A DNA stretch of 64,000 nucleotides. Origin: an uncultured Bacteroidales bacterium. Lineage in GTDB: Bacteria > Bacteroidota > Bacteroidia > Bacteroidales > Muribaculaceae. The notes under the pieces were generated by a model. It ran no database searches, was not told where the DNA came from, and saw nothing but the letters and a program-made list of their open reading frames with translations. Made by a program: the position numbers and the translations under genes. The stretch covers positions 19,085-83,084 of the forward strand of contig CACZHT010000005.1 of assembly GCA_902781045.1 (NCBI GenBank). The letters run 5' to 3'. This document shows positions 10,773 through 33,630 of the stretch, one piece after another; positions within the stretch are counted from its first letter, which is position 1; each line of letters opens with the position of its first letter.

Positions 10773-11348
10773 ATGCTCAAGCGTTCTGATGTGCATTGGT
10801 TTCCCATGCGTGTTAGCTACTCCAGTGCGCCACGCCTGGCACGACTCAAGGATTTGCTTGAGCAGGACGAAGCGGTGCAGGCAACCTATGTCGCCATGCA
10901 GTACAAGAAGGTGCGTGGTGTCATGAAGTTCACCCCGGCTGTCGAAAACCTGATTTTCGTCCGTTCAAGCCTTGACCGGCTGAGTGTGATAAAACGCACA
11001 GGACCCTTTGTCGTGCTGCGTTACATCATGCACCCGGTCATTGAGAACGATGGCTGGAAGCACACCGAGCCGCTGATGGTGCCCGACACCCACATGGACG
11101 ACTTTATCCGGGTCACGGCCGAGGCCAACGACAAGGTCATCTATCTTGACAACCTTGATTTTGCCTGCAGGCCGGGACTGCGGGTGCAAATCACTGATGG
11201 TACCTTTGCCGGTGTGACGGGGGTCATCAAGCGCATCCAAGGCAATGTTTGTGTGGTCATACCCATCCAGCACACCATTGCGGCGGCAATCACCGGCATC
11301 CCACGCAAGCACTTGCGCTATCTCCCCGACAACGAACCAGATAATTAA
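10773..11348 (+). CDS. upxY: UpxY-family (NusG-like) transcription antiterminator
   Basis: W(F)PMRVSY, P.VENLIFVRSS, VPD.HMDDF and KOW motif RVQITDGTFAGVTG. First gene of a polysaccharide locus. Confidence 0.88.
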   Translation: MLKRSDVHWFPMRVSYSSAPRLARLKDLLEQDEAVQATYVAMQYKKVRGVMKFTPAVENLIFVRSSLDRLSVIKRTGPFVVLRYIMHPVIENDGWKHTEPLMVPDTHMDDFIRVTAEANDKVIYLDNLDFACRPGLRVQITDGTFAGVTGVIKRIQGNVCVVIPIQHTIAAAITGIPRKHLRYLPDNEPDN

Positions 11349-11370
11349 TCAAACAATCTCAACGAATATT

Positions 11371-12171
11371 ATGAAGAAGCAGTCACTTCTGGCGACAGCA
11401 TTTGTCGCCATGTTGCTTTATAGCTGCAAAACCCCCAACGTCGGCTATATATCCGATGTGAAGAATGGCCAGACCGATGCCATCGCTCAGGTATTGGACA
11501 TCAGGTTCAAACCCGATGACAAGATTTGCATCATCATCAAGAGCCAGGATTCAAGGCTCAGTGAACTTTTCAATCTGCCCATCTACACCCTGCGAGTGGG
11601 GTGGGGCAACAGCTCGTCGCAGTACATGTCGGCTTACACCATCGACCCCGATGGCAATATCGATTTCCCCGTGCTGGGAACGATGCATATTGCTGGCATG
11701 TCAAGGCACGAGGTTGAACAGCTTGTCAAGAACGAGTTGCTCACTCGCAAGCTGGTCAACGACCCGCACGTTACGGTTGAGTTTGGCAATATGGCCATCA
11801 ATGTCATGGGCGAGGTTAACAAGCCTGGACGTTATGAGTTCGACCGCGACCACATCACTGTGCTCGATGCATTGAGCATGGCCGGCGATTTGACCATTTT
11901 GGGGCAGCGCGATAGTGTTAAGGTGGTACGCTCCAACGGGGTCAACCAGACCACAACCTATGTCCTCAACTTGCAGAAAGCCGATGAGTTATATTCATCG
12001 CCGGCATTCTATCTGCAGCAGAACGACGTGGTCTATGTCACCCCCAACGTGTATCGTGCGCGCCAGTCGGTGGTCAACGGCAATAATGTTTACTCAACAT
12101 CTTTCTGGATTTCGGTTGCCTCGTTGGTCACATCGGTGACGTCGGTCATCTTCATGATTGTCAAAAAATAA
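11371..12171 (+). CDS. wza: Polysaccharide export outer-membrane lipoprotein (Wza-like)
   Basis: Lipobox LLYSC, DGNIDFPVLG, VMGEVNKPG, DALSMAGDLT and C-terminal amphipathic helix. Start moved to ATG 11371. Confidence 0.88.
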   Translation: MKKQSLLATAFVAMLLYSCKTPNVGYISDVKNGQTDAIAQVLDIRFKPDDKICIIIKSQDSRLSELFNLPIYTLRVGWGNSSSQYMSAYTIDPDGNIDFPVLGTMHIAGMSRHEVEQLVKNELLTRKLVNDPHVTVEFGNMAINVMGEVNKPGRYEFDRDHITVLDALSMAGDLTILGQRDSVKVVRSNGVNQTTTYVLNLQKADELYSSPAFYLQQNDVVYVTPNVYRARQSVVNGNNVYSTSFWISVASLVTSVTSVIFMIVKK

Positions 12172-12186
12172 CCTCCTGAAATAGTT

Positions 12187-14610
12187 ATGGCAGTAACCAA
12201 AAAAGTGTCTTCCGATCGCCATCAGTCTGGCGAGTATCTGCGGTTGCAGGATCTTTTTTCGATTTGTCTCGAGCACAAATTGTGGTTTTTCATCTCGTTG
12301 GTGGTGTGCTTGGGCTTGGCCTTTGCCTACTTGTTGTGCACACAGCCTGTGTATACTCGTTCATCGGCCGTGCAGGTCAAGAAGGAGGGTAAGAGTGACA
12401 AGTCGCTGGCTTCTGAACTAAGCTCGGTTTCAGGCATGGGCGTGTTCAGCAGCAGTTCCAATGTTCGCAACGAGTTGGTATATTTCCAGTCTCCCGACCT
12501 GATTATGGAGGTGGTCAAGCGTCTGGGAGTAGATGTGTCCTATACCACAGACGGAACGTTCCATAAGCAGACACTCTATGGGCAGACGTTGCCTGTGACA
12601 CTCTCTTTCCGCAGCATGGCTTACCATGACAACGGCTCATGTACAGCGTCGCTAACTAAGGACGGAACTGTAACCCTTAGTAATTTCAAACGTAATGGAG
12701 ACAAATGCGGCGATGGGAAACCCATTACCGCCAAGGTCAACACTGAGGTCAAGACCCCACTCGGTAATGTTATGGTCGCTGCCAACGACAACTATGCTGC
12801 ACTGGTCGGCGACAAGATGGATGTATATGTCCATCGCACGAACCTCATGTCGGCTGTTACAGCCTATAAGTCGAAACTGACTGTTGTGCTCGATGATAAG
12901 ATGAACGACATCATAGACCTCTCGTTCAGTGATGTCAACATCCAGCGAGCTGAGGATTTCCTCAATATGCTGGTCGCGGTGTACAACGAGAACTGGATCA
13001 AAGACAAGAACCAGATTGCAGTCAGCACTTCCGAGTTTATCGGCGAGCGACTGGCTGTCATTGAGAACGACCTGGGTAATGTCGATAATGACATCTCTTC
13101 TTATAAGAGCTCAAACCTCGTGCCAGATGTCGATGCTGCGTCCCACATGGCCATGACCACAGCAAACCAAGCGAGTGTGCAGATTTCTGACCTGAGTAAC
13201 AAACTCTACATGGCGCGCTATGTGCGTGAACATGTCAAGAAGTCGGGCAACTCGCAGCTGTTGCCTGCCAACTCGGGAATCAACGCCCCTGCTATCGAGG
13301 CACAGATTAGCGACTATAACTCCAAGTTGCTACAGCGCAACAGCTTGGTGTCAAACAGTAGCGAGGACAACCCACTGGCTGTCGAGATGGACAAGCAGCT
13401 CACATCAATGCGCGCTGCGCTCATCTCCTCGCTGGACAATCAGGTGAGCACCTTTGAGGCGCAAATCCGGGGGTTACGCTCGGTCGAGGGCACCAACACG
13501 TCCAAGATGGCCAGCAACCCCTCGCAGGCCAAGTACCTCCTCTCGGTTGAACGACAGCAGAAGGTCAAGGAGTCGCTCTATCTCTTCCTCCTGCAAAAAC
13601 GCGAGGAGAACGAACTTTCGCAGGCCTTTACGTCCTATAACACCCGTATCATCATGTCGCCCACAGGGCCAATGTCGCCCACATCGCCCAACCGCAAACG
13701 CGTCTTCATGGCAGCACTGCTGTTGGGATTGCTCATCCCCATGGGGTTGCTCTACATTCGCGAGAACATGAACAATCGTGTACGTGGGCGCAAAGATCTT
13801 GATGGAATGGAGACTCCCCTTGTGGGCGAAATCCCACAGTATGGTCGCCGTGACAAGCGTTCACTCCTCGACCGCATTACCGGCAACAAGCGGCGTGAAG
13901 ACCACTACCAGATTGTCATCAAACCTAAGAGTCACAACGTCATCAACGAGGCGTTCCGTATCGTGCGCACCAACATTGAGTTCATGGGGCAGTCGCAGGA
14001 TCGCAAGGTCTATATGGTCACTTCGGCCAATCCCCAGTCGGGCAAGACGTTTGTCTCGATGAACCTGGCCATGACTTTCAGTATCAAGGGGCTGCGTGTA
14101 GCTGTCGTTGACCTTGACCTGCGTCGCGCATCGCTTTCATGTTATGTCCAGTCGCCCAATATCGGTGTTTCAGGATATCTCAATGGCAAGTTTGACAACT
14201 GGAGAGACATCGTCGTACCAATTACCAGCAATGAGGGCAAGCTTGACGTGATTCCCGTTGGAGCCATTCCGCCCAACCCAGCAGAGTTGCTGTTCAGCCC
14301 CAAGCTCGAGCAGCTCATCACTGAGCTGCGTGAGCAATATGACATCGTTTTTCTCGATTGCCCGCCCGTTGAGTTGGTGGCCGATGCCAATGTCATCGCA
14401 CGTTGGGCCGACATGACGCTCTTTGTTATCCGTGCCGGCCTCATGGTTCGCGACATGCTTCCCTCTATCGATGAGTTCTATACCGACAAGAAGTTCAACA
14501 ACATGGCTCTGATACTCAACGGTACAGAAACCGAGCATAGTCGATACGGTTATGGCTACGGATATGGTTACGGATATGGCTATTCTTATAGTGGTTATAC
14601 CGACAAATGA
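12187..14610 (+). CDS. wzc: Polysaccharide co-polymerase / BY tyrosine kinase (Wzc-like)
   Basis: Two TM segments, coiled-coil periplasmic region, Walker A SANPQSGKT, VVDLDLRR, FLDCPP, and a C-terminal cluster of 9 tyrosines. Confidence 0.92.
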   Translation: MAVTKKVSSDRHQSGEYLRLQDLFSICLEHKLWFFISLVVCLGLAFAYLLCTQPVYTRSSAVQVKKEGKSDKSLASELSSVSGMGVFSSSSNVRNELVYFQSPDLIMEVVKRLGVDVSYTTDGTFHKQTLYGQTLPVTLSFRSMAYHDNGSCTASLTKDGTVTLSNFKRNGDKCGDGKPITAKVNTEVKTPLGNVMVAANDNYAALVGDKMDVYVHRTNLMSAVTAYKSKLTVVLDDKMNDIIDLSFSDVNIQRAEDFLNMLVAVYNENWIKDKNQIAVSTSEFIGERLAVIENDLGNVDNDISSYKSSNLVPDVDAASHMAMTTANQASVQISDLSNKLYMARYVREHVKKSGNSQLLPANSGINAPAIEAQISDYNSKLLQRNSLVSNSSEDNPLAVEMDKQLTSMRAALISSLDNQVSTFEAQIRGLRSVEGTNTSKMASNPSQAKYLLSVERQQKVKESLYLFLLQKREENELSQAFTSYNTRIIMSPTGPMSPTSPNRKRVFMAALLLGLLIPMGLLYIRENMNNRVRGRKDLDGMETPLVGEIPQYGRRDKRSLLDRITGNKRREDHYQIVIKPKSHNVINEAFRIVRTNIEFMGQSQDRKVYMVTSANPQSGKTFVSMNLAMTFSIKGLRVAVVDLDLRRASLSCYVQSPNIGVSGYLNGKFDNWRDIVVPITSNEGKLDVIPVGAIPPNPAELLFSPKLEQLITELREQYDIVFLDCPPVELVADANVIARWADMTLFVIRAGLMVRDMLPSIDEFYTDKKFNNMALILNGTETEHSRYGYGYGYGYGYGYSYSGYTDK

Positions 14611-14646
14611 CGCAAACAAATAATTACTCTTAATATTAAACATTAG

Positions 14647-15960
14647 ATGAAAGAAATCTTACTTAAAAAAATTGCAGACCATCAGATTGTGGCTGGCGTT
14701 GTCGGTCTGGGTTATGTTGGTCTGCCCTTGGCCGTAGAGAAGGCTAAGGCGGGTTTTCGCACCATCGGCTTCGATGTGCAGCAAGAGAAAGTTGACTTAG
14801 TTAATTCGGGGCACAACTACATTGGTGATGTCGTTGACAGTGACCTCAAACAGCTGGTCGAAAAGGGTATGCTCCGTGCTACCACTGACTTTAGCGAGAT
14901 TTCCAATGTCGACTTCGTAGCCATTTGTGTGCCAACACCCCTTGATGCGCACCAGCAGCCTGACATCAGCTATGTTGAGTCTTCGGCTCGGTCTATTGCT
15001 AAGTATTTGCACCGTGGCATGATGGTCGTTCTTGAGTCGACGACTTATCCTGGCACTACTGAGGAATTGATTAAACCAATTCTTGAGACTTCTGGTCTTA
15101 AGTGTGGAGAGGATTTCTACTTGGGTTTCTCGCCCGAACGTGTCGACCCAGGAAACGCTCAGTTCAAGACCAAAAATACACCCAAGGTGGTGGGCGGTCT
15201 CGGTGCGGATGCGAGCGAGGTGATATCAGCGATGTACGAAGCGGTACTTCAGAGTGATGTGTTCCGTGCTTCGTCGCCCGCAGTAGCCGAGATGACTAAG
15301 ATTCTTGAAAACACTTATCGAAACATCAACATTGGACTCATCAACGAGCTGGCCATTTTGTGCAACCGCATGAACATTAACCTGTGGGAGGTCATTGAGG
15401 CTGCCAAAACTAAACCATTCGGTTTCACTCCATTCTATCCCGGTCCAGGTCTGGGAGGCCACTGTATTCCCCTTGATCCATACTACTTGAGCTGGAAGGC
15501 GCGTGAATATGGTTTCCACACATCGATGATTGAGGCTTCGATGATGGTCAACGATCGGATGCCTGAGTATTGTGTGGCACGTACAGCTGATATACTCAAC
15601 CGCCGATTCCAGAAATCGCTCAGCGGGAGTCGTGTGCTTGTGCTGGGTGTGGCCTACAAGCAGGACATCGACGACTATCGTGAGTCTCCGGCAATCCGCG
15701 TCATCGAGCGACTGAAGATGAAAGGAGCCGAAGTGGTCTTCTACGATCCTTTCATACCCAAGTTCCGTGATCATGGGAAGAACTATGTGGGCGAACCGGC
15801 TCTGACTGCCGAGTTGATTGAGAGTGCCGACATCGTTGTAATCACTGCATCGCACAGCACAATCGACTATGACTTTGTTCAGAGTCACGCACGTGCAATC
15901 TTTGACACCAAGAACGTCACTAAGGACGTTAAAGACAAGAGCAATATTGAGGTTCTTTAA
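14647..15960 (+). CDS. wbpA: UDP-N-acetylglucosamine 6-dehydrogenase (WbpA/WbpO-like)
   Basis: GLGYVGLPLA, ICVPTP, LESTTYPGTT, FSPERVDPGN, GPGLGGHCIPLDP and GVAYKQDIDDYRESPA. Confidence 0.88.
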   Translation: MKEILLKKIADHQIVAGVVGLGYVGLPLAVEKAKAGFRTIGFDVQQEKVDLVNSGHNYIGDVVDSDLKQLVEKGMLRATTDFSEISNVDFVAICVPTPLDAHQQPDISYVESSARSIAKYLHRGMMVVLESTTYPGTTEELIKPILETSGLKCGEDFYLGFSPERVDPGNAQFKTKNTPKVVGGLGADASEVISAMYEAVLQSDVFRASSPAVAEMTKILENTYRNINIGLINELAILCNRMNINLWEVIEAAKTKPFGFTPFYPGPGLGGHCIPLDPYYLSWKAREYGFHTSMIEASMMVNDRMPEYCVARTADILNRRFQKSLSGSRVLVLGVAYKQDIDDYRESPAIRVIERLKMKGAEVVFYDPFIPKFRDHGKNYVGEPALTAELIESADIVVITASHSTIDYDFVQSHARAIFDTKNVTKDVKDKSNIEVL

Positions 15961-16158: not shown

Positions 16159-16710
16159 ATGATTCATCCCTCTAGCTTTATCGACGATGATGTTCAGATT
16201 GGCCAGGGTACCAACGTCTGGCATTTTTGCCACATTCAGCGTGGTGCGCGACTGGGCTGCAACTGCTCTTTAGGTCAGAACGTCAACATTGGCAACAATG
16301 TCATCATTGGCAACGGCGTACGCATCCAGAACAATGTGTCGGTCTACGAGGGTGTCGAGATTGAGGACAATGTCTTCTGCGGCCCTTCGTGTGTGTTCAC
16401 CAATGTTGTCACACCGCGCGCACACTTTCCCGTTCATGGCATCTATGCTCGCACACTCATCCGCGAGGGGGCTTCACTCGGCGCCAACTGCACTGTCGTT
16501 TGTGGACATACTGTGGGGCGCAGTGCACTCATCGCTGCCGGGGCTGTTGTCACTCGTGACGTCAAGGACTATGCTCTCATGGCAGGTGTGCCTGCCCGTC
16601 AGATTGGCTGGGTGTGTGAGTGTGGTAAAAGGTTGGACGATTCGCTGCAGTGCTCTTGTGGGCGCCGTTATCATCACGATGCCACCACTGACACCTTGAC
16701 ACAAGAATGA
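16159..16710 (+). CDS. wbpD: Hexapeptide-repeat N-acetyltransferase (WbpD-like)
   Basis: [59 protein letters not shown]. Confidence 0.88.
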
Positions 16711-16773: not shown

Positions 16774-17922
16774 TTGAAGCAAGTGCAATTTCGCGATTTA
16801 AAACAACAATATCAGGCTCTCAAAGCCGAAATCGACCAAGCCATGATTGAAGTCGCAACATCTGGTGCTTTCATCATGGGCCCGCAAGTCAAAGTGCTTG
16901 AGCAACAGCTTGCCCAATATGTCGGCGTAAATCACTGCATCAGTTGTGCCAACGGCACCGATGCGCTGACTCTTGCGCTAAAGGTGTGGGGGGTCGGCCC
17001 CGGCGATGCCGTCTTTGTGCCTGATTTCACGTTCTTTTCTTCGGCCGAAGTAGTGAGCCTTGAGGGGGCAACACCCATTTTTGTCGATGTCAATGCCGAC
17101 ACTTTCAATGTTGATCCCACCGATTTGGAGCGTGCCATTCGTCAAGTTATTGACGAGGGAAAGCTCAGACCGCGTGTCATCATTGCTGTTGACCTCTTCG
17201 GTCTGCCTGCCGATTATCCGGCCATACGTCAAGTGGCCGACCGTTACAGTCTGTTTATCCTTGAGGATGGTGCACAGGGCTTCGGTGGTTCCATCGGCAA
17301 TCAGCGTGCTTGCAGTTTTGGTGATATCGCCACAACATCTTTCTTCCCGGCCAAACCTCTGGGCTGCTATGGCGATGGTGGAGCTGTGTTTACAAATAAT
17401 GATGAATGGGCCATGCTTGCCGACTCCTATCGTGTACATGGCAAGGGTGCGTTCAAGTATGATAACGTGCGCATCGGTCTCAACTCGCGACTTGATACAC
17501 TACAAGCTGCCATCCTGCAAGTCAAGCTCAAGGCGTTTGCCGATTATGAGCTGGAGGCCGTCAATCGTGTAGCCGAGTGCTATACATCAATGCTGGGCGG
17601 AAAGGTCAAGACTCCGGACATTCCCGATGGGTTTGGCTCTAGCTGGGCGCAGTACACCATTCAGCTTGACAATCGTGACATGCGAGACTCGCTTCAGGCG
17701 GCACTAAAATCTAAAGGTATACCGGCTATGGTCTATTATCCAACGCCTATGCACTTGCAGACCGCCTTCAGGTCATTGCAAACAAAGCAGAATGGCTCTG
17801 TCGCATCACAATGTCCAGTCTCGGCACTGTTGAGCCAAACCGTCCTCTCACTCCCCATGCATCCATACTTGTCGGACGACGACGTGGCAACAATTTGCAA
17901 TGCAATCTTCACATCGCTGTAA
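16774..17922 (+). CDS. wbpE: DegT/DnrJ/EryC1/StrS PLP aminotransferase (WbpE-like)
   Basis: ANGTDAL, VDLFG, EDGAQGFG, SFFPAKPLGCYGDGGA, NSRLDTLQAA. TTG start. Confidence 0.88.
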   Translation: MKQVQFRDLKQQYQALKAEIDQAMIEVATSGAFIMGPQVKVLEQQLAQYVGVNHCISCANGTDALTLALKVWGVGPGDAVFVPDFTFFSSAEVVSLEGATPIFVDVNADTFNVDPTDLERAIRQVIDEGKLRPRVIIAVDLFGLPADYPAIRQVADRYSLFILEDGAQGFGGSIGNQRACSFGDIATTSFFPAKPLGCYGDGGAVFTNNDEWAMLADSYRVHGKGAFKYDNVRIGLNSRLDTLQAAILQVKLKAFADYELEAVNRVAECYTSMLGGKVKTPDIPDGFGSSWAQYTIQLDNRDMRDSLQAALKSKGIPAMVYYPTPMHLQTAFRSLQTKQNGSVASQCPVSALLSQTVLSLPMHPYLSDDDVATICNAIFTSL

Positions 17923-19524: not shown

Positions 19525-19755
19525 ATGGAATTAGAAAAATTTATTGAGAATTTTGCTGAACAGTTCGATGAGACAGATGCAAGTGAGATCACTGCGTCGA
19601 CTAACTATCATGACCTTGAAGAGTGGTCATCGCTTGTCGCTTTGTCGGTTATAGCAATGGTTGATGAAGAGTACGATGTGACACTGAAGGGTGATGATAT
19701 CCGCAATAGCAAAACAGTAGAGGACCTGTTTAACCTTGTGTCTTCGAGATTGTAG
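19525..19755 (+). CDS. Acyl carrier protein
   Basis: 76-aa acidic protein with EEWSSL (phosphopantetheine serine) and TVEDLFNLV. Confidence 0.88.
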   Translation: MELEKFIENFAEQFDETDASEITASTNYHDLEEWSSLVALSVIAMVDEEYDVTLKGDDIRNSKTVEDLFNLVSSRL

Positions 19756-19762
19756 TAAAAGA

Positions 19763-22612: not shown

Positions 22613-22645
22613 CTGTTGTCTAGACACGTGATAAGTTGGCGAGGT

Positions 22646-23230
22646 ATGATTCACCAGATTGCTAATTCATTGTTTAATTCCAACACTTGGATTATTGAAT
22701 TAGAAGACACTCTATGGCTGGTTGATTGTGGGGATGTCGAAACGGTGATTCCACTTTTGAAAAACAAATCTCTTTCGGGGATTCTATTGACACATGCTCA
22801 TTTTGACCACATCTATGGGTTGAATACCCTTTTTCGGATTTGCTCGAACGCATTGCTCTATACCAATGTCTACGGCAAAATTGCATTGACTGACTCGAAG
22901 AAAAACCTGTCATTCTATCATGAGACGCCTTATGTATTTGATTTCCCCGAAAGGGTGAGAATAATTGATGATGGCGATACGATAGAGTTGAACGAGGACT
23001 ATCAGGCTGTTGCTGTTGCAACTCCAGGGCATAACAATAGCTGCCTATCTTATGTGCTGGATGATTGCTTGTTTACGGGTGATTCATATATACCAGGATT
23101 GAAGGTGGTTACAAGTCTGCCTGGAGGCAATAAGGTGAATGCCAACGAGTCCTTGGAAAAGATTATGAATCTGGCAAAAGGACGCATCATTTATCCTGGT
23201 CACGGTGCCTCGCAAGAAAAGACGATGTAA
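22646..23230 (+). CDS. MBL-fold metallo-hydrolase
   Basis: LVDCG, THAHFDH, TPGH, FTGD, YPGHG. Confidence 0.85.
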   Translation: MIHQIANSLFNSNTWIIELEDTLWLVDCGDVETVIPLLKNKSLSGILLTHAHFDHIYGLNTLFRICSNALLYTNVYGKIALTDSKKNLSFYHETPYVFDFPERVRIIDDGDTIELNEDYQAVAVATPGHNNSCLSYVLDDCLFTGDSYIPGLKVVTSLPGGNKVNANESLEKIMNLAKGRIIYPGHGASQEKTM

Positions 23231-23252
23231 TCTCAGATGTTTTGTTTGCCCG

Positions 23253-25391: not shown

Positions 25392-26420
25392 ATGAAGATA
25401 TTAATTGATATAAATCATCCCGCGCATGTTCATTATTTCAAGAATTTTATAAAAATAATGGAAGCGCATGGACACAAATTCTTTGTAATCAACAGAGATA
25501 GTCCAATGATTAATCAGTTGCTTGATTACTATGGCATTGAGCATACAATCCGTAATAAGCGCCCTGAAAAGAAAGGAACGATAGCATCATTGATGAATAT
25601 TCTTCGTATGATTGGCTGGGTGGCGAAGAAGTCTTTCTCTTTTCATCCTGACATTTATATGGGGTTCGCTTCTTCTGCTTGTGCTGTTACATCGTTTTTG
25701 TTCAGGAAACCCTGTGTGCTTATTGATGACACGGAGCATAATGTAATGAATCAGAAGCTATATCTGCCATTCTGTTCTAAAGTGCTGACTCCTTTTTATT
25801 TCCAAAAACAGCTTGGGGACGGAACGAAGCAAGTACGCTTTAATGCTTATGTAGAACAATTGTATCTGCACAGCAAATATTATAAGAAGAATCCAGCTGT
25901 TCTTGATGAACTGGGTGTTAAGCCGGGTGAATATGTGATTGTGCGCTATATTGCGTATGATGCGCATCACGATTTGGTAGCACATCCTATCTCTGATGAT
26001 GTGAAGAAGAAAATTGTCAGTGAAATAGCTAAGCACTATCGGGTGTTTGTATCGCTAGAAAAGAACGTAAATGATCATTTTTATGATGATTATTTGTTGA
26101 AAATATCGCCTGAAAAAATGCATGACTTGGAGGCTTATGCCAAATTTATGGTGGCTGAAGGGGCAACAATGGCATCAGAATCATTTATTCATGGCGTCCC
26201 CTATCTGTACTTGAATCCTTTGCATTGCGGGTATATTGACTACCAATGTGAGCACTATCCTGACAGGGCTTTTCAAACAACTGACAAGGAACAAGCATTG
26301 CAGATTGTGCAGCGACTTCTTCTCACCGATTGTGACTCTGATCACGAAAAAAAGAACATTGAGAGTCAGACGATAGATCCTACTGCCTACTTGATAAGTG
26401 TAATTGAGCCCCCCCTGTAG
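25392..26420 (+). CDS. DUF354-family protein, probable GT-B-fold transferase
   Basis: MKILIDINHPAHVHYFKN, DDTEH, EGATMASES. Confidence 0.8.
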   Translation: MKILIDINHPAHVHYFKNFIKIMEAHGHKFFVINRDSPMINQLLDYYGIEHTIRNKRPEKKGTIASLMNILRMIGWVAKKSFSFHPDIYMGFASSACAVTSFLFRKPCVLIDDTEHNVMNQKLYLPFCSKVLTPFYFQKQLGDGTKQVRFNAYVEQLYLHSKYYKKNPAVLDELGVKPGEYVIVRYIAYDAHHDLVAHPISDDVKKKIVSEIAKHYRVFVSLEKNVNDHFYDDYLLKISPEKMHDLEAYAKFMVAEGATMASESFIHGVPYLYLNPLHCGYIDYQCEHYPDRAFQTTDKEQALQIVQRLLLTDCDSDHEKKNIESQTIDPTAYLISVIEPPL

Positions 26421-26665: not shown

Positions 26666-27871
26666 ATGAAAATTGGACTTTTAAAAGAGACCAAAACACC
26701 TGTAGATAATCGTGTGGCTTTGTCACCCGAACAGGTTGCCAGACTTAATAAGGAATTTCCTGAATCTGAGATTGTAGTTCAGAGTAGCGATATAAGAGCG
26801 TTTACTGACGATGAATATCGCAAAGCAGGAGTAAGGGTTGTTGATGATATTTCTGACTGTGATGTGCTGTTTGGCATCAAAGAAGCTAGTATTGATACTC
26901 TGCTTTCTGGTAAGCACTATGTTTTCTTCGGTCACATTGCTAAGATGCAGGAATATAATCGTCCGTTGCTACAGGCGTTTTTACATAAAGGAATTACATT
27001 TACTGACTACGAGTATCTAGTCGATGATAGAGGTGTACGTGTCTGTGCCTTTGGATGGTGGGCTGGTGTGGTTGGTGTCTATTATACACTGCGAGGATAT
27101 GGCTTAAAAACCGATAGTTTCGAATTGCCGCAGCCTGATGTCAGATTTACACTACAGCAGTTGATTGATACTCTGAAAAATCTCGAATTACCGGCGGTAA
27201 AAATGCTGGTTACAGGGGCTGGCCGCGTGTCACAGGGTGCTCAGTATGTCCTGGACCAAATAGGTGCGAAACGTGTCTGTGAAGAAGATTATTTGAACGA
27301 ATGCAAAGTTGACACTTTGACTTACTGCGTGGCTGATGTGGACAGACTGGTACGTAGAGTTGATGGCGGTGTTTTCTCGTTTAAACATTTTACAGACTAT
27401 CCTAGTGCATACGAGAGTGATTTCATGCGATGGGCAAAACAGACTGATGTGCTAATCTCTGCTCACTTCTGGTCTAATGATGCACCCGTTTATCTAAGTC
27501 AGGATGACCTCAGAAGCCCAGATAATCGCATCCGTATGATAGGGGATGTTACATGCGATATTATGGGTAGCATCAAATCTACTATTAGGTCAGCAACGCA
27601 TCAAGATCCGTATTATGATTATAACCCAATAACAGAAGAGGAAGAGGCATTATTTGCCAACAAGAACAACATCACTGTCGAAGCTGTTGATACATGTCCC
27701 AATGCCCTACCTATGGATGCCAGCAAATATTTTGGTGAGATGCTCATTCCGCATGTGTTAGAGCCATTGCTGAAAGGCGAAGAATCAAAGGTAATTACCG
27801 GCGCTACTATCATAAAAGACGGTAAACTGACTGATAAATTCTTATATTTGTCTGATTTTGCGCAAGGATAA
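26666..27871 (+). CDS. Saccharopine dehydrogenase / lysine-ketoglutarate reductase-like NAD(P) oxidoreductase (AlaDH/PNT superfamily)
   Basis: MKIGLLKETK..DNRVAL.P, FGIKE, FFGHIAKMQEYNRPLL, DYE, FGWWAGVVG, VTGAGRVSQGA, IGDVTCD, AVDTCPNALP. Confidence 0.8.
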   Translation: MKIGLLKETKTPVDNRVALSPEQVARLNKEFPESEIVVQSSDIRAFTDDEYRKAGVRVVDDISDCDVLFGIKEASIDTLLSGKHYVFFGHIAKMQEYNRPLLQAFLHKGITFTDYEYLVDDRGVRVCAFGWWAGVVGVYYTLRGYGLKTDSFELPQPDVRFTLQQLIDTLKNLELPAVKMLVTGAGRVSQGAQYVLDQIGAKRVCEEDYLNECKVDTLTYCVADVDRLVRRVDGGVFSFKHFTDYPSAYESDFMRWAKQTDVLISAHFWSNDAPVYLSQDDLRSPDNRIRMIGDVTCDIMGSIKSTIRSATHQDPYYDYNPITEEEEALFANKNNITVEAVDTCPNALPMDASKYFGEMLIPHVLEPLLKGEESKVITGATIIKDGKLTDKFLYLSDFAQG

Positions 27872-27881
27872 AAAGGCAATA

Positions 27882-29348
27882 ATGGCGGAAAAAAAGCTGA
27901 AACAGAAAGCAGTGTCCAGTATGATTTGGATGGCTGTCCAAAGATACTCGAAGATGCTAATTCAATTCGTCTCGGGTATCATTTTGGCTCGATTGCTCAC
28001 TCCGTATGACTATGGTTGCATTGGTTTACTTGCCGTTTTTGTCGTATTGGCAGAGTCATTCATTGACGGTGGCTTCGGTTCGGCTTTGATTCAAAAGAAA
28101 CGACCAACCCAAGAGGATTATTCAACTATATTCTTTTGGAATCTTCTGATGTCGATGATTCTTTATGTCATTTTGTTCATTTCTGCTCCAACAATAGCAC
28201 GTTTCTACAAAATACCATTATTAAGCGATGTCTTGCGGGTTTATGGTATAGTCCTATTTGTCTATGCGTTTAATGTTGTCCAGCAAAACCAGCTGCAAAA
28301 ACAATTGAACTTCAAACTCTTGTCCATCGTGGCTCTGGTGTCTTCAGTTATTTCGTTAGCAGTAACCATCATCATGGCATATAATGGGTTTGGTGTTTGG
28401 GCTTTAGTTACACAATATCTACTTATTGCAATAATTCCTGCTTTTGCCTTTTGGTTTTTGGTAAAATGGAGACCAAGACTTGTCTTCTCCTGGAGCTCAT
28501 TTAAGGAGTTGTTTAGCTTTGGTTTCTATATGTTTCTGACAAATTTAATCAATCAGTTCGGAAGTCAATTGCAAGGGCTTTTGATTGGTCGATTCTACAA
28601 CGCGGCAACCTTGGGTTATTATTCTAAGGCTCAAAGAACAGAAACCTTAGCTTCACAGAGCATTTCATCTATCATGACTCAGGTGACATTCCCATTGTAT
28701 GCTGAGTTGCAAAACGACAGGCAGGCTATGGCCATGGTAATCAAAAGGATTACCATGACGCTAGCTTATTTCTCATTTCCCATTCTATTTATATTTCTAT
28801 TGCTTGCTAAACCGATATTTATTATACTTTATTCTGATAGGTGGTTGGCTAGTGTGCCATATTTCCAAGCGCTGTGCATTGCTGGGCTTGCTGGATGTTT
28901 GCAGGCGGTGAATTTGCAGTCCATTTCTGCAATTGGAAAAAGCAAAACAATGTTTGAATGGACCATCGTAAAACGCATTGTAGGTATTGGCGCTGTTGTC
29001 GTTGGGCTATTGTGTTATGGCATGAAAGGGCTGCTTGCTGGTGTGGTTTTTAACTATTGGTTCTCTTATTTTATAAATATCAGACTAGTGTCGAAGCATA
29101 TTGGCTATAAGTGGTATCACCAAATCAGAGATCTCTTTTCAGTGGGGGCTGTGTCTGTCACAATAGCCGGTATATGCTTTTTGTTGGGTGAATGGCTCAA
29201 TCTTGGTATTTACCTTAATGGGTTGATACAGTTGGTTGTCTATCTTTGCTTGTATCTTGGATGGTCGCTCTTTTTCAAGCCTGAAGCCTATACATATTTT
29301 ATTAGTGTCATACCAAATAGATTTAAATCAAGATCTAAATCAAGATAA
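27882..29348 (+). CDS. wzx: Wzx flippase (PST family)
   Basis: GIILARLLTPYDYG, DGGFGSALIQKK, LGYYSKA and many TM helices. Confidence 0.9.
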   Translation: MAEKKLKQKAVSSMIWMAVQRYSKMLIQFVSGIILARLLTPYDYGCIGLLAVFVVLAESFIDGGFGSALIQKKRPTQEDYSTIFFWNLLMSMILYVILFISAPTIARFYKIPLLSDVLRVYGIVLFVYAFNVVQQNQLQKQLNFKLLSIVALVSSVISLAVTIIMAYNGFGVWALVTQYLLIAIIPAFAFWFLVKWRPRLVFSWSSFKELFSFGFYMFLTNLINQFGSQLQGLLIGRFYNAATLGYYSKAQRTETLASQSISSIMTQVTFPLYAELQNDRQAMAMVIKRITMTLAYFSFPILFIFLLLAKPIFIILYSDRWLASVPYFQALCIAGLAGCLQAVNLQSISAIGKSKTMFEWTIVKRIVGIGAVVVGLLCYGMKGLLAGVVFNYWFSYFINIRLVSKHIGYKWYHQIRDLFSVGAVSVTIAGICFLLGEWLNLGIYLNGLIQLVVYLCLYLGWSLFFKPEAYTYFISVIPNRFKSRSKSR

Positions 29349-29384
29349 GCCCCTAATTATCGTTTTGCCATTTGATGGAATTAT

Positions 29385-30182
29385 ATGATACAAATTATTC
29401 TGAATGCTGATGATTTTGGAAAAAGTGTGGCTCGAAACAAGGCGATTGATGATTCTCTCAAGCAGGGTTTGATTCAATCAACAGGCCTAATTGTAACGGG
29501 CAAGCACCTTGAAGAAGCAGTGGATTTCATGATGAGTGGGGATTATGCTGGGAAGACTCATCTTCATTTTAATTTATCGGCAAATTTATTGCACGAAGAT
29601 TCTGATGATGCCCCACTTACCGAGGGCATGAAGAGGGATTCTTTTTTTTGTGAAGATGGGAAGTTCATTAGATATAGAGGATTGCCACGTAACATTACTG
29701 ATATCAGAAAGTGGAAAATCGTCTATAACGAATTAGTAGCTCAGTACAACAAATACATTGAAGTTACAAGAGGACAAGGCAATAATACTCATGTTGATTT
29801 TCATTTGTGGTACAACTTGACATTTCCTGTCGCACTTGCACTAAATGCTTTCACTCGTAAATATGGCATAAAATCGGTGCGATATATTGGGCTCCACCAG
29901 AAATCCCTTAGATATAGGCTATTCCCGATGATAAGTTGGAATCCAAAGGTGAAATCATACCCATCCACTAACATCGATTATTTCCTTTCGTGCCATAAGT
30001 CAATAAGGCAATCACAAATAATAGAACTGTACTGCCATCCCAATTATAAAGATGGAATACTTCTTGATGACAGTGTATCGTATCTTAAACACGAAAGACA
30101 GCCTATGCAAGTGCATGTTAGTATGCTAAAGAAAATAGGCGACATTACTTTTTTGTCATGGGAGGATATAAAAAATGAGTAA
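29385..30182 (+). CDS. YdjC/ChbG-family carbohydrate deacetylase
   Basis: LNADDFG, HLHFNL, HVDFH, LYCHP. Confidence 0.78.
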   Translation: MIQIILNADDFGKSVARNKAIDDSLKQGLIQSTGLIVTGKHLEEAVDFMMSGDYAGKTHLHFNLSANLLHEDSDDAPLTEGMKRDSFFCEDGKFIRYRGLPRNITDIRKWKIVYNELVAQYNKYIEVTRGQGNNTHVDFHLWYNLTFPVALALNAFTRKYGIKSVRYIGLHQKSLRYRLFPMISWNPKVKSYPSTNIDYFLSCHKSIRQSQIIELYCHPNYKDGILLDDSVSYLKHERQPMQVHVSMLKKIGDITFLSWEDIKNE

Positions 30183-31323
30183 TATTCGTTTGTTTTTCTC
30201 TGGGGATTTTTGCTCGAAACCATCAACTTCAAAAATCTCTGTTTCGGACGAATTGAAAGAGCTGATTCAATCCTGTGATTGGAAGGTTGTGAATTTCGAG
30301 GTGCCTTTGAAGCCTAAAAATTCTTCTAATTCTCAAGGACGATTTTTTCAAAACGACGATGCCCCTTCTTTTCTGCTTAATCTAGGTTTCAACCTATTCT
30401 CGTTCGCCAACAATCATGCTTTTGATTATGGTATAGAAGGATGGAAGAAAACGGTAGATAGTCTCTCAGGAAAAATTTTTGGTTCGGGCAGATATGATGA
30501 CGCTTATCAAGTTAAAATTGTAGAAAAGAATGGTCTGAAGATTGGATTTCTTGCCTTGACCTACGCTGCCCGATCCGGGGTTTTTGATATTTTCACAGAT
30601 AAGGATTCTTATGCTTGTGCATGGATAAATGACCTGAAAGTCAATCACATTATCATTGATGCAAAGAAAAAAGTTGATTATCTTGTAATTCTTCCGCATG
30701 ACGGCATTGAGTATATCGATGTTCCTATGCCAGAAACAATTTCTCGTTACCGAGATTTTATTGAATACGGTGCTGATGCTGTGATAGGAACTCATCCGCA
30801 TTGCCCACAGGGATGGGAAGTGTATAAGGGGAAACCAATCTTTTACAGCCTTGGCAATTTTTTGTTCAACAGCAAGGATAATTATGATTATAGGGCATGG
30901 AATCGTCCTCATTGGTATGAAGGTTTGTGCGTTATTGTTAGCTTTGGTGTCGATGGCATAACTTATCAAGTTATTAATACAAGGAATGAGGGAAATGTTG
31001 GCATATCTGTTGAGCATTCTACCGATAGGGATGAACACAACAGACGGTTGTGCAGCTACCTTACGGACAAAGAGGCATATTCAAGGGTATTGAATAAGGA
31101 ATGTAGCCGTTTGATGAAAAATCAGGAGATGCCAATTATTAATCAGTCTTTTCATAGTGTCTCGTTAAAATCATCGGTTATATTGCTGTTTAAGACGTTA
31201 GTGAGGGTAGTCTTGAAGCGAAATAATGATACCGCGCTTGTCAATCTTGTCAAGAATGATTCCAGAAGAAGTTTGTTGATTCGTGGTCTTCAAGAGACAA
31301 ATGATGCTCAAGGTAAAAAATAG
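30175..31323 (+). CDS. CapA/PGA_cap-family metallophosphatase-like protein
   Basis: SGDF, VNFE, ANNHAFDYG, PHDGIEY, GTHPH, YSLGNF. Confidence 0.85.
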   Translation: MSNIRLFFSGDFCSKPSTSKISVSDELKELIQSCDWKVVNFEVPLKPKNSSNSQGRFFQNDDAPSFLLNLGFNLFSFANNHAFDYGIEGWKKTVDSLSGKIFGSGRYDDAYQVKIVEKNGLKIGFLALTYAARSGVFDIFTDKDSYACAWINDLKVNHIIIDAKKKVDYLVILPHDGIEYIDVPMPETISRYRDFIEYGADAVIGTHPHCPQGWEVYKGKPIFYSLGNFLFNSKDNYDYRAWNRPHWYEGLCVIVSFGVDGITYQVINTRNEGNVGISVEHSTDRDEHNRRLCSYLTDKEAYSRVLNKECSRLMKNQEMPIINQSFHSVSLKSSVILLFKTLVRVVLKRNNDTALVNLVKNDSRRSLLIRGLQETNDAQGKK

Positions 31324-31344
31324 TAGTATTTAAAAAACGATTTA

Positions 31345-32439
31345 ATGAATATTGCAAAAAAAATCCGCAATTTGATGTTTATATGCCATAAAGAAATAGC
31401 ATATAGATATCATGAGAGAAAGGTCGGAAGAAATCTGAAAAAGCTTGTCGATCGCAAGAGATTGACCAGAGACCAAATAAATGAGATTCAAGAGTTCTAT
31501 AAGGGAATCATAGGCAAAAAGATATCTCTGAAATCGCATGAGTATTTTTACTCGCGAACGGGTATCTACTCTAAAGAGTATGTCCCTATCAGCCTCTACC
31601 ATGTTGAGTTGCAACCCAAGGCTAACATGGTGCCCTATCGCAATGCTTATGCCGATAAAAACATGGTGGACATTCTGTTGCCCAATGTAAAACATCCACG
31701 AACCATTGTGAAGCGTATGAATGGGTATTACTACTATGATGGGCAACCGATATCAGAGGATGACGTGATAGAGAAATGCAGCAATCTGAAGAACGCAATC
31801 ATTAAACCTGTTCTGGAATACAGCGGAAAGGGAGTTGAAGGCCTTGAGGTTACAAATGGCATCACAAATATTGATGGACTTAATCTGAAAGAGCTATTCA
31901 ACAAATATGGCAAGAACTTCCAGATACAAGAACGATTGCGTCAGCATGAGAAAATGAATGCACTCAATCCGACCTCAGTCAATACAATCAGAATATTGAC
32001 TTATCGTTCTGGAATGGAAATTCTGCTGATTTATTCGGTTGTGCGCATTGGCAGAAAAGGGCAGGTTATTGACAACCAGTGCGCGGGCGGAATTAGTACA
32101 ATCGTCTCCGAAGATGGAAAGCTGGGGAAATATGCCTTTGGTGGATATGCCGAAGATGGAATTGAGGTTACCGACTCAGGAGTTGTGCTAGATGGTTTTG
32201 AAATACCATCGTACGACAAAGCTGTTGAAACAGTTAAGAGACTTCACTATCAGTTGCCCTTCTTCAACTTGATAGGCTGGGATGTGGCTATCGATGAGGC
32301 CGGAGATCCAGTCATTATTGAGTGGAATGCCAATCCTGGCTTGAGCCAATCAGCATTTGGACCTGGGTTTGGTAAATATACAGAGAGGGTGTTGCGAGAA
32401 TTGTGGCCCAGAGAGAATACTGCGCGATTGCGCTATTGA
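31345..32439 (+). CDS. Sugar-transfer-associated ATP-grasp ligase 2
   Basis: YADKN, IIKP...SGKGV, IQERL, SVNTIRILT, RIG..IDNQCAGG, IGWDVAI, IEWN. Confidence 0.82.
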   Translation: MNIAKKIRNLMFICHKEIAYRYHERKVGRNLKKLVDRKRLTRDQINEIQEFYKGIIGKKISLKSHEYFYSRTGIYSKEYVPISLYHVELQPKANMVPYRNAYADKNMVDILLPNVKHPRTIVKRMNGYYYYDGQPISEDDVIEKCSNLKNAIIKPVLEYSGKGVEGLEVTNGITNIDGLNLKELFNKYGKNFQIQERLRQHEKMNALNPTSVNTIRILTYRSGMEILLIYSVVRIGRKGQVIDNQCAGGISTIVSEDGKLGKYAFGGYAEDGIEVTDSGVVLDGFEIPSYDKAVETVKRLHYQLPFFNLIGWDVAIDEAGDPVIIEWNANPGLSQSAFGPGFGKYTERVLRELWPRENTARLRY

Positions 32440-32652
32440 CTGAATTGCAGTAGCTGATTTGGATAGTGGCTTGCGTTTCCTCTATGGCACTATGTGGGTT
32501 TTCACAGATTGTCTGAGTTGGATTGTGCATGCGCACATTGCATCAGCCCATCGATTGATTTCTGTTTTTTATAACTGATATATTGGCAGTGCTAGGCGTC
32601 TTTCATCCTTTTGAAATCCTGGTGCTATAAAAGAACACAGATAATAATTTTA

Positions 32653-33630
32653 ATGAAAAACTTTGCACTCATTGGTGCTGCGGGATATATCGCACCGCGG
32701 CACATCAAGGCCATCGCCGACACAGGAAACAACCTGATGGTGGCATACGACCGCTTTGACAGTGTGGGACGACTGGACAGCTCGTTCCCCGAAGCCTCGT
32801 TCTTCACCGAGCAGGAGCAGTTTGACCGGTTCTGCTCGCGACAGATGCTAACCGACAACCCGTTGCACTGGCTCAGCATTTGCACTCCCAACTACACGCA
32901 TGACGCATTCATACGCTATGGACTGCGGCTGGGCACGGATGTCATCTGCGAGAAACCGCTTGTACTGAACCCTTATAACATCGATAATCTCTTGGAGGTG
33001 GAGCGAGCCACCGGTCACAAGGCTTACACCATCTTGCAGTTGCGTCTGCACGACTCGATTGTGGCTCTAAAGGAGAAAATCGACAACGGCCCCAAGGACA
33101 AAATCTACGATGTCGACCTGACTTATATCACCAGCCGAGGCAAATGGTACTATGCTTCATGGAAGGGCGACATACACAAGAGTGGCGGTGTGGCGACCAA
33201 CATCGGCGTGCACTTCTATGACATGCTTCAGTGGGTGTTCGGTCCTGTGAAGCAGAATATAGTGCATGTGATGAGCTTTGACCGCGTGGCGGGATACTTG
33301 GAGCTGGAAAAGGCGCATGTGCGTTATTTCCTGAGCATCAACGCCGAGTGTCTGCCACCCAATGCTGTGCAGGGCGAGAAGCGGACCTACCGCACGCTTA
33401 ACATCGATGGCGACGAATTTGAGTTCAGTGTGGGATTCACCGAGCTGCATACTAAGAGTTACCAGAAGATTCTGGCCGGAGAGGGATTCCGCATCAGTGA
33501 GGCAAGGCCGTGCATTGAGATTGTGAGCGACATCCGTCACGCCACACCCATCGGACTCAAGGGCGACTACCACCCGTTGGCACGGCTCCCGCTCTCTACT
33601 CACCCCTTCGGCTGGGACGAGAAGCGTTGA
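32653..33630 (+). CDS. wbpB: UDP-GlcNAcA 3-dehydrogenase (WbpB-like, Gfo/Idh/MocA family)
   Basis: NFALIGAAGYIAPRH, ICTPNYTH, VICEKPL, SWKGD..KSGGVATNIGVHFYDML, GFTELHT.SY. Confidence 0.9.
   Translation: MKNFALIGAAGYIAPRHIKAIADTGNNLMVAYDRFDSVGRLDSSFPEASFFTEQEQFDRFCSRQMLTDNPLHWLSICTPNYTHDAFIRYGLRLGTDVICEKPLVLNPYNIDNLLEVERATGHKAYTILQLRLHDSIVALKEKIDNGPKDKIYDVDLTYITSRGKWYYASWKGDIHKSGGVATNIGVHFYDMLQWVFGPVKQNIVHVMSFDRVAGYLELEKAHVRYFLSINAECLPPNAVQGEKRTYRTLNIDGDEFEFSVGFTELHTKSYQKILAGEGFRISEARPCIEIVSDIRHATPIGLKGDYHPLARLPLSTHPFGWDEKR

Follow-up and report, generated by a model that had tools for sequence, protein, structure and literature searches.

How a capsule locus with almost no glycosyltransferase genes might still direct the assembly of a surface polymer is the question raised by a gene cluster on contig CACZHT010000005.1 of an uncultured Bacteroidales bacterium. 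Within the 64-kb stretch of this contig that was analysed (the window, to which all coordinates refer unless another locus is named), positions 10773–33630 are read from their genes as a single co-directional capsule locus of a rumen Bacteroidales bacterium, headed by a UpxY-type antiterminator gene, a marker of Bacteroidota capsule operons, and including Wzx, Wzy, Wza and Wzc. The main new result is an uncharacterised class of cassette within this locus, composed of a lysine-ketoglutarate-reductase/saccharopine-dehydrogenase-like protein (LKR), a CapA-like protein of the PGA_cap family and ligases of the ATPgrasp_ST family. Together with the genes for a diamino-uronic acid precursor, this cassette suggests that the locus may make a very short repeat unit, of one or two sugars, that carries amide-linked side chains.

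Glycosyltransferase genes and the amide-forming cassette

No match to a Glycos_transf or Glyco_trans family of Pfam was found at E ≤ 0.01 in the locus or in 26 further open reading frames (ORFs) of the window, and profiles for glycosyltransferase (GT) families GT2, GT4 and GT32, built for this analysis from 174 fetched loci, matched no six-frame ORF of the 64 kb. The initial annotation had recognised no GT2 or GT4 enzyme in the locus, and both searches confirm this; overall, no member of GT2, GT4, GT26 or GT32 was found in the locus or in the remainder of the window. For comparison, GT2/4/32 genes have a density of 1.17 per 10 kb in 55 loci anchored on homologues of DUF354, a protein of the locus that is discussed below, and at this rate a stretch of 23 kb would hold about 2.7. 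The absence of such genes is unusual.

The block at 26666–32439, which encodes LKR, the Wzx flippase, a YdjC-family protein, PGA_cap and the second of two ATPgrasp_ST ligases, recurs as a cassette in Bacteroidales of the rumen and gut. Homologues of LKR with 70–80% identity occur in Prevotella-type capsule loci, and a metagenome scan anchored on LKR returned 80 loci, of which 42 with a length of at least 12 kb were used to calculate shares. Any ATP-grasp gene was present in 95% of the 42 loci, ATPgrasp_ST in 90% (93 copies, up to 5 per locus), PGA_cap in 62%, and YdjC in 31%. A GT2, GT4 or GT32 gene was present in 45%, a lower bound because only these families were counted while one locus (L137) has a GT26 gene. 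The gene order of the window is exact in L137 and recurs with additional PGA_cap/ATPgrasp_ST pairs in L120, L126 and L134. ATPgrasp_ST stands directly after PGA_cap in 30 of 50 cases, compared to 9.7 ± 2.5 in within-locus shuffles (maximum, 22 in 2000). Several LKR loci possess no glycosyltransferase over the sampled 14–21 kb, yet have 4–6 ATP-grasp genes. Further, sets of acyl carrier protein (ACP), short-chain dehydrogenase/reductase (SDR) and FabH genes recur beside ATPgrasp_ST genes, directly upstream of LKR genes and, in other loci, next to DUF354.

The two ATPgrasp_ST ligases are 27% identical to each other. They belong to a family of about 3,900 clusters (50% identity; E ≤ 1e-10), in which the ATP-binding lysine (K154) and the D...E-x-N metal motif (D313, E326 and N328) do not vary among 29 diverse members. 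The family is said to go back to work by Iyer and colleagues in 2009 on amidoligases with ATP-grasp domains, and we know of no characterised member. Ligase 1 matched no sequence in the PDB and no solved structure was found for the family; its nearest solved relatives are the RimK-type and tubulin-tyrosine-ligase-like (TTLL) glutamate ligases, which attach amino acids to carboxylates. No relevant literature was found on ATPgrasp_ST (PF14397) or on ATP-grasp capsule loci in Bacteroidales.

MslH and CapA/PgsA, which share a PGA_cap/calcineurin-like fold and two His/Asp pairs with the PGA_cap protein of the window, act on a residue whose free carboxylate adjoins an amide. The window protein aligns to the lasso-peptide epimerase MslH (8e-12) and keeps D11, E42, an N-H-x-x-D motif and two further histidines at the positions of MslH D11, E44, N87/H88/D91, H259 and H295 (phmmer alignment, with D11 placed by direct reading). 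Both catalytic pairs of MslH (D11/H295 and H88/D91) are thus present and, of the calcium ligands E44, N87, H259 and H261, the last aligns to a tyrosine while the others are kept. MslH epimerises the C-terminal residue of its substrate, and CapA/PgsA has been proposed to do likewise in poly-gamma-glutamate synthesis, the polymer of pgsA-less Bacillus subtilis being L-rich (PMC10406935, PMC8179263, PMC6029982). In contrast to the lasso-peptide and PgsBCA systems, lasso-peptide genes, PgsB and PgsC were not found in the locus, where the partner of PGA_cap is an ATPgrasp_ST ligase among polysaccharide genes; the sole Mur ligase, the type to which PgsB belongs, lies downstream among housekeeping genes (Table 1). 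PGA_cap is a candidate MslH-type epimerase of a C-terminal amino-acid residue, a reading that goes beyond the CapA-like label of the initial annotation.

The protein first described as a reductase like saccharopine dehydrogenase retains the full active site of this enzyme, which likewise goes beyond that description. The alignment of LKR to the LKR domain of human AASS (1e-37) and to yeast saccharopine dehydrogenase spans the whole protein, with R16, K72, H90, K93 and R125 falling on yeast R18, K77, H96, K99 and R131, which we take to be the catalytic Lys/His pair and the carboxylate-binding Arg/Lys residues. The catalytic and carboxylate-binding residues are therefore those of a group that includes L-lysine-forming saccharopine dehydrogenase, AASS LKR and N5-(carboxyethyl)ornithine synthase, and LKR is a candidate opine-forming enzyme for the reductive condensation of an amine with a 2-oxoacid. 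Unlike saccharopine dehydrogenase, LKR is encoded in a capsule locus, where its gene overlaps that for Wzx. A housekeeping role in lysine metabolism, considered in view of the 70–80% conservation, was rejected since the homologues are likewise located in capsule loci.

A second set of genes, upstream of the cassette, surrounds ATPgrasp_ST ligase 1. The ACP, FabG-like SDR and FabH proteins are predicted to form a cassette whose product would be a short 3-hydroxyacyl group, the metallo-beta-lactamase-fold (MBL) hydrolase is a candidate acyl-thioester hydrolase, and the AAC(3)-like protein is a candidate N-acylase of amino sugars.

Relatives with up to 5–6 ATP-grasp genes, up to 3 PGA_cap genes and few or no glycosyltransferases raise the prospect of a backbone that is itself partly amide-linked, in which the ligases join repeats or build a poly-amide and so give a glycopeptide- or teichuronopeptide-like polymer; RimK and TTLL, the closest solved relatives of the ligases, are processive polyglutamylases. 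The initial annotation had offered this backbone as one of two outcomes. Against it, the window has just two ATP-grasp genes, plus Wzy and Wzx, and lacks any PgsB, PgsC or TupA-like member in the locus. Since the locus has a Wzy polymerase and 28 of the LKR loci encode Wzy-like polytopic proteins, an amide-linked backbone is very unlikely and polymerisation is probably still glycosidic. The comparison with teichuronopeptide synthesis drawn in the initial annotation is a loose one, the ligases being of the ATPgrasp_ST family and giving no match to the TupA-like ATP-grasp family even at E ≤ 10.

Two of the LKR loci had additional gene content. In L120 (4095–8869 of that locus), a TIM-barrel C-C bond lyase, a fumarase-like hydratase, a D-2-hydroxyacid dehydrogenase and an MmgE/PrpD dehydratase are encoded together with LKR and ATP-grasp genes, which suggests unusual di- or tricarboxylic acids as substrates of the ligase or of LKR. 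In L161 (9992–16089), a minimal LKR-YdjC-PGA_cap-ATPgrasp_ST set without Wzx is directly followed by a gene resembling class II Lys/Asp/Asn-tRNA synthetases.

Sugar precursor, DUF354 and the phosphoglycosyl transferase

The pathway to a diamino-uronic acid that the initial annotation had assigned to WbpA, WbpB, WbpE and WbpD was borne out for WbpB and WbpD and, at family level, for WbpA and WbpE. Over its full length the MocA-family protein matches Pseudomonas aeruginosa WbpB (PDB 3OA2), and the hexapeptide protein matches the Bordetella WlbB/WbpD acetyltransferase (PDB 3MQG), and both are firm orthologues as judged from these alignments (Table 1). The dehydrogenase and the DegT protein fit WbpA and WbpE at family level (TIGR03026 and PF01041), with all substrate-specific models under cut-off. 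From these matches, UDP-2,3-diacetamido-2,3-dideoxy-glucuronic acid (UDP-GlcNAc3NAcA), or an N-acyl variant of it, is a well-supported precursor. A search of the window ORFs with Pfam and Epimerase_2 seeds found no Epimerase_2 (WbpI-type) homologue, in agreement with the initial annotation, and the manno-epimer would require an epimerase for which the locus has no recognisable candidate. The wbp/wlb loci of P. aeruginosa O5 and Bordetella (WbpA, B, E, D and I) have in common with the window WbpB, WbpD/WlbB, a WbpA-like dehydrogenase, a DegT protein and Wzx/Wzy-dependent assembly. Unlike these, the window locus is without Epimerase_2 (WbpI) and WbpH/WbpJ-type GT4 enzymes, has a putative initiating enzyme of the Bac_transf rather than the WbpL/WecA type, and carries additional acyl- and amide-forming genes. 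Many loci with DUF354 and WbpB, though not the window, also encode next to WbpB a protein of about 1000 residues with FAD_binding_4, FAD-oxidase_C and Fe-S domains (L007, 11087–14053; L012, 11106–14126), a candidate 2-hydroxyglutarate dehydrogenase for recycling the by-product that WbpB forms in its 2-oxoglutarate-coupled NAD+ regeneration.

DUF354 has been described as a predicted glycosyltransferase with few conserved catalytic residues (PMC4520260), the sole relevant text among search results that otherwise were mostly on DUF354x families. Its AlphaFold2 (AF2) model (mean predicted local distance difference test [pLDDT], 90.9) has a two-Rossmann GT-B fold, and Foldseek returned 262 PDB matches at E ≤ 1e-3, with all of the 50 matches listed being GT-B. 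The top ranks are held by non-hydrolysing UDP-GlcNAc 2-epimerases, including the Thermus UDP-GlcNAc3NAcA 2-epimerase (PDB 8SXW; E ~3e-14, template modelling [TM] score ~0.7), with GT1-type transferases following from ~2e-12. PDB sequence searches with the single sequence and with a profile of 25 diverse members found nothing. In hhalign comparisons that used this 25-member profile, DUF354 aligned to the GT4 profile with 97.2% probability (E 4e-11, 311 columns) compared to 28.8% for an Epimerase_2 alignment made from the fetched loci, which held 7 sequences only. The conserved TEGATMASE segment of the DUF354 family aligns to the E-x7-E helix of GT4, where E256...E263 (E-x6-E) fits the motif with one gap, while the epimerase motifs GDT, HVEAGLR, PEE and HRREN, which include the catalytic carboxylates and histidine, are absent or unaligned.

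Because the GT4 profile is favoured and the epimerase motifs are missing, DUF354 is probably the sole glycosyltransferase of the locus. The dedicated transferase named in the initial annotation therefore stands as a likely GT4-like GT-B enzyme, though not as a settled one since its best structural matches are WbpI-type epimerases; a role as an epimerase of any kind is improbable. The Foldseek ranking had at first made DUF354 a candidate for the missing WbpI, which was downgraded after the profile comparisons and the motif check.

Close homologues of DUF354 in Bacteroidales (49–76% identity) are found alongside WbpB (84–90% identical) and a 389-residue Bac_transf protein, and a GT4 gene of about 305 residues nearly always lies directly upstream of DUF354 or of the Bac_transf-DUF354 pair. 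Distant homologues (Pontibacter, Algoriphagus, Planctomycetes and Methanosarcina) lie among GT2, GT4 and Bac_transf genes. A conserved neighbourhood, which the initial annotation had suggested looking for with wbpABDE and ATP-grasp genes, thus exists with WbpB, the short GT4 and Bac_transf, but does not extend to the ATP-grasp genes: ATPgrasp_ST occurs in 0 of the 55 loci built around DUF354 homologues, from which it follows that the locus is a mosaic of independent modules rather than one co-evolved system.

The neighbourhoods also bear on the alternative in which DUF354 would be a non-canonical UDP-GlcNAc3NAcA 2-epimerase, leaving a single transferase and a Wzy that polymerises a one-sugar repeat of decorated mannosaminuronic acid. 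Beyond the Foldseek ranks and the co-occurrence with WbpB, this reading draws on the absence of an intact Epimerase_2 from every locus with WbpB and DUF354, on the position of DUF354 beside amidino-type genes (WbpG-like, HisH and HisF) in a Methanosarcina locus, and on its position in L021 beside a candidate WbpG-like gene (an N-terminal zinc-ribbon sequence only, with no Pfam match). It is opposed by the hhalign result and the loss of GDT, HVEAGLR and HRREN, as well as by most distant DUF354 loci, which lack WbpA/B/E genes, and by four to five DUF354 loci that also have a canonical Epimerase_2 gene or fragment. Overall, it appears quite improbable. Two of the loci are described here for their own gene content. 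In L045 (5663–11077), from a Methanosarcina metagenome-assembled genome (MAG), DUF354 follows asparagine-synthase-like, HisH-like, HisF-like and PP-loop (WbpG-like) genes and two GT4 genes, a set that looks like the acetamidino/uronamide sugar genes akin to those of P. aeruginosa wbp. In L024, a Prevotella MAG locus with WbpB, a 121-residue Epimerase_2 fragment (8889–9251) stands directly after DUF354 and may be the remnant of a displaced WbpI-type gene.

The one phosphoglycosyl transferase of the initial annotation is present with an intact Bac_transf catalytic core, but is atypical. The DE dyad lies in an IDELP motif and the core aligns to WbaP and PglC at 1e-13 to 1e-10. The Pfam match begins only at position 31 of the profile, which leaves the protein without the canonical N-terminal re-entrant helix, and no transmembrane or strongly hydrophobic segment was found in the 389 residues (highest 15-residue hydropathy, 1.0). 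Residues 30–215 form a conserved methyltransferase-like Rossmann domain (AF2 pLDDT, 75–94; weak Foldseek matches) with a helix-Pro-helix insertion at residues 144–173, while the pLDDT of the catalytic domain is below 50, so that the model is uninformative on membrane association. The same architecture occurs in more than 100 Bacteroidales clusters, the family is a conserved neighbour of DUF354, and an N-terminally extended Bac_transf variant also flanks DUF354 in Algoriphagus.

Layout, flanks and conservation of the locus

The locus consists of 21 solid genes, all on the + strand, with UpxY first and WbpB last (Table 1). The initial annotation had counted 23; the gaps between the 21 genes contain tiny doubtful ORFs only. 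All of the enzyme classes it named were located where it had placed them (Pfam and NCBIfam). The likely start of Wza is the methionine ahead of an LLYSC lipobox, with an alternative longer ORF (from 11245) that runs into UpxY. The C-terminal tail of Wzc (14560–14610) is a tyrosine-rich YG-repeat, YGYGYGYGYGYSYSGY. One contig from an RNA run has a 36-nt joint in this tail that goes back from 14583 to 14548, and another run has single-base gaps nearby, so that the length of the repeat may vary between strains. The hexapeptide-DegT gene pair is kept in relatives.

Table 1. Genes of the capsule locus and selected flanking features, with positions in the 64-kb window
Feature	Position	Strand	Supporting match or remark
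Type I dockerin protein	1942-3603	-	
Type I dockerin protein	5494-8694	-	
Inverted repeat at transposase start	8861-8876 / 8929-8944		
DDE transposase	8919-10205		Directly before UpxY gene
UpxY-family antiterminator	10773-11348	+	NF033644 3e-21 (under curated cut-off); KOW motif
Wza-type outer-membrane polysaccharide export lipoprotein	11371-12171	+	Poly_export, SLBB domains
Wzc chain-length regulator/tyrosine autokinase	12187-14610	+	Wzz, GNVR, P-loop domains; TIGR01007 over cut-off
NDP-sugar 6-dehydrogenase, WbpA-like by genomic context	14647-15960	+	TIGR03026 1.5e-130, over cut-off
Hexapeptide acetyltransferase, WbpD/WlbB-type UDP-GlcNAc3NA 3-N-acetyltransferase	16159-16710	+	phmmer 8e-61 to PDB 3MQG
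DegT-family pyridoxal-phosphate aminotransferase, WbpE-like by context	16774-17922	+	PF01041 6e-97
Wzy-type repeat-unit polymerase	18112-19470	+	Wzy_C 3.7e-8; many hydrophobic segments
ACP	19525-19755	+	
FabG-like SDR	19736-20521	+	
FabH	20531-21589	+	
ATPgrasp_ST ligase 1	21608-22612	+	PF14397 2.8e-46
Glyoxalase-II-like MBL hydrolase	22616-23230	+	Lactamase_B 2.7e-21; weak TIGR03413 match
AAC(3)-like N-acyltransferase (Antibiotic_NAT)	23205-24173	+	Antibiotic_NAT 4.5e-26
Atypical 389-residue phosphoglycosyl transferase	24209-25378	+	Methyltransferase-like N-terminal domain; Bac_transf catalytic domain
DUF354 GT-B protein	25392-26420	+	
LKR (lysine-ketoglutarate-reductase/saccharopine-dehydrogenase-like)	26666-27871	+	AlaDh_PNT
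Wzx (MOP) flippase	27858-29348	+	Polysacc_synt_3 2.5e-92
YdjC-family de-N-acetylase	29385-30182	+	
PGA_cap (CapA/MslH-like) protein	30175-31323	+	
ATPgrasp_ST ligase 2	31345-32439	+	PF14397 5.5e-36; paired with PGA_cap
WbpB (GFO_IDH_MocA), UDP-GlcNAcA 3-dehydrogenase	32611-33630	+	phmmer 4e-107 to PDB 3OA2
Type I dockerin protein	33930-35234	+	
Mur ligase	44927-46312		Among housekeeping genes

The G+C content is about 0.50–0.55 in the flanks and the conserved end genes, compared to 0.38–0.44 across 18–32 kb; a low-G+C middle is usual for the horizontally exchanged, serotype-specific core of such loci. A DDE transposase lies directly upstream and may account for the mosaic make-up of the locus and for the loss of the GT4 partner of DUF354. 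The only inverted repeat found upstream of UpxY is that at the transposase start, and none resembled an invertible promoter. The upstream flank also encodes a dockerin-bearing GH13 amylase; of the three type I dockerin proteins around the locus, one is this amylase, with CBM26 modules. Dockerins are usually tied to the cellulosomes of Firmicutes. Downstream, a dockerin protein and an outer-membrane beta-barrel protein are followed by housekeeping genes (the Mur ligase, Ddl, UvrD, a KdsB-like CMP-sugar cytidylyltransferase, phosphofructokinase, PyrF and RF-1).

The DUF354 protein of the window is encoded on 22 contigs that were read, of which 6 were fetched. The whole locus is present on all 6, which come from different samples, with 97–100% protein identity except for YdjC, and is therefore not a one-off assembly. 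Its DNA is present in bovine and sheep gut metagenomes, and contigs from RNA runs span nearly the whole locus, though these carry no strand information and DNA carry-over is possible. In the window and in L003, ydjC stays in frame through a tract of eight thymines (29642–29649 of the window), whereas 5 of the 6 near-identical contigs have seven, which results in a frameshift and a 116-residue product. Slipped-strand switching may turn the deacetylase on and off, or the difference may be an assembly error that recurs.

Mosaic origin, a low-G+C core set against flanks of about 0.52 and an adjacent transposase, together with the missing GT4 and a ydjC that is frameshifted in most copies, would also be expected of a recently shuffled and partly decayed locus that no longer makes a capsule. 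This is highly improbable given that all 21 ORFs are intact in the window and that the proteins other than YdjC are so closely conserved on the other fetched contigs; the near-complete coverage by contigs from RNA runs, subject to the same carry-over, points in the same direction.

A short, amidated repeat unit and the readings that compete with it

The locus is best explained as assembled from three mobile modules. From the observed gene content, orthology, folds, motifs and recurrence we infer, in the following scheme, the substrates, the sequence of the reactions, how many sugars a repeat contains and what its side chains are. The first module (WbpA, WbpB, WbpE, WbpD, the 389-residue Bac_transf and DUF354) would supply UDP-GlcNAc3NAcA or its N-acyl variant and then a very short lipid-linked repeat, with the phosphoglycosyl transferase adding the first sugar and the GT4-like DUF354 the second. 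The second module (ACP, SDR, FabH, ATPgrasp_ST ligase 1, MBL and the AAC(3)-like protein) would provide a short 3-hydroxyacyl or acetyl group to be attached as an amide. The third module (LKR, Wzx, YdjC, PGA_cap and ATPgrasp_ST ligase 2) would place an amino-acid-derived side chain on the sugar: YdjC would free an amine, the ATP-grasp ligase would form an amide between a carboxylate (of a uronic acid or an amino acid) and an amine, PGA_cap would epimerise the newly exposed C-terminal residue as MslH does, and LKR would reductively couple a free amine with a 2-oxoacid to give an opine-type N-carboxyalkyl group. The decorated unit would be flipped by Wzx, polymerised through its sugars by Wzy and exported by Wza and Wzc. 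Such a side-chain logic of ligation, epimerisation and reductive alkylation on a diamino-uronic acid repeat is supported by the match of PGA_cap to MslH and by the kinship of ATPgrasp_ST to RimK and TTLL.

A one- or two-sugar repeat that bears amino-acid or acyl side chains in amide linkage, the first of the two outcomes put forward in the initial annotation, is the most economical reading of a locus whose amide-forming enzymes belong to a conserved and expanded cassette, and has about an even chance of being correct. Several observations weigh against it. Some LKR loci do have GT2, GT4 or GT26 genes, so that the cassette can serve as no more than a source of decorations. The window lacks the short GT4 found nearly always beside DUF354 in relatives, and the locus possibly relies on a transferase encoded elsewhere. 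The initiating role of the 389-residue Bac_transf is uncertain as it lacks a re-entrant helix or strongly hydrophobic segment, Foldseek places 2-epimerases slightly over glycosyltransferases for DUF354, and the Epimerase_2 profile set against this ranking is small. Further, the frameshifts in ydjC imply that the YdjC step is dispensable or switched.

The first two of these points agree with a conventional oligosaccharide repeat, for which the missing glycosyltransferases, such as the short GT4, would be encoded elsewhere in the genome and the amide-forming enzymes would add minor decorations. GT4, GT2 or GT26 genes are frequent in the relatives of both modules, a GT4 gene upstream of DUF354 or Bac_transf-DUF354 is the rule in Bacteroidales, and the adjacent transposase fits a rearrangement. 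Capsule loci normally carry their own transferases, however, and none is present in the 64-kb window; the arrangement without them is kept on all 6 fetched contigs and is matched by the LKR loci that combine 4–6 ATP-grasp genes with no glycosyltransferase in the sampled stretch. A conventional repeat is therefore considered unlikely.

The chemistry of a short, amidated repeat has precedents. Proteus and Providencia O-antigens carry amides of sugars or uronic acids with amino acids, N-epsilon-(1-carboxyethyl)lysine or alanopine. Modifications of the N-epsilon-(1-carboxyethyl)lysine and alanopine type have been reviewed for O-antigens (PMC10609480, PMC6801904). An amide-linked, N-carboxyalkylated amino acid is the product that would be expected here from an ATP-grasp ligase and an LKR/opine-type dehydrogenase, though the Proteus and Providencia loci have normal sets of glycosyltransferases and the window locus does not; no literature was found on the genetics of carboxyethyl-lysine decorations of O-antigens. 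In the Campylobacter jejuni HS:2 capsule locus, the ATP-dependent amidoligase Cj1438 amidates a uronic-acid carboxylate, as proposed here. Its ligase domain is presumably a TupA-like ATP-grasp, to which the window ligases have no Pfam match, and the HS:2 locus is further unlike that of the window in being an ABC-transporter system with several polymerising glycosyltransferases and no PGA_cap or LKR partner. Glucuronamide formation in the HS:2 capsule has been described (PMC11800379, PMC12409886).

The repetition of ATPgrasp_ST/PGA_cap pairs, each of which might ligate and then epimerise, together with opine-like links made by LKR, might go further and extend a lipid-linked mono- or disaccharide with an oligo-amide chain of mixed D/L configuration, to be flipped by Wzx and polymerised by Wzy, a tentative extension that is doubtful at present. 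If it is true, sugar-peptide surface polymers would have a route of synthesis other than Mur ligases, PgsBCA and non-ribosomal peptide synthetases, and this route would be widespread in rumen and gut Bacteroidales, as judged from loci with as many as 5 ATPgrasp_ST genes and as many as 3 PGA_cap genes.

In gut and rumen Bacteroidales, the capsule governs sensitivity to phages, recognition by the immune system and competition for niches, and to our knowledge almost no capsule structure is available from Prevotella-like rumen bacteria. The analysis offers testable functions for three little-understood families: for ATPgrasp_ST, for PGA_cap/CapA, whose role in poly-gamma-glutamate synthesis has long been unclear, and for DUF354, and flags a phosphoglycosyl transferase variant without the hallmark re-entrant helix. 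If the proposed model is true, pipelines that predict the size of repeat units from glycosyltransferase counts would systematically misread such loci. Overall, this locus and the presence of its cassette in dozens of others point to capsules that are diversified by amide chemistry and not by glycosyltransferases.

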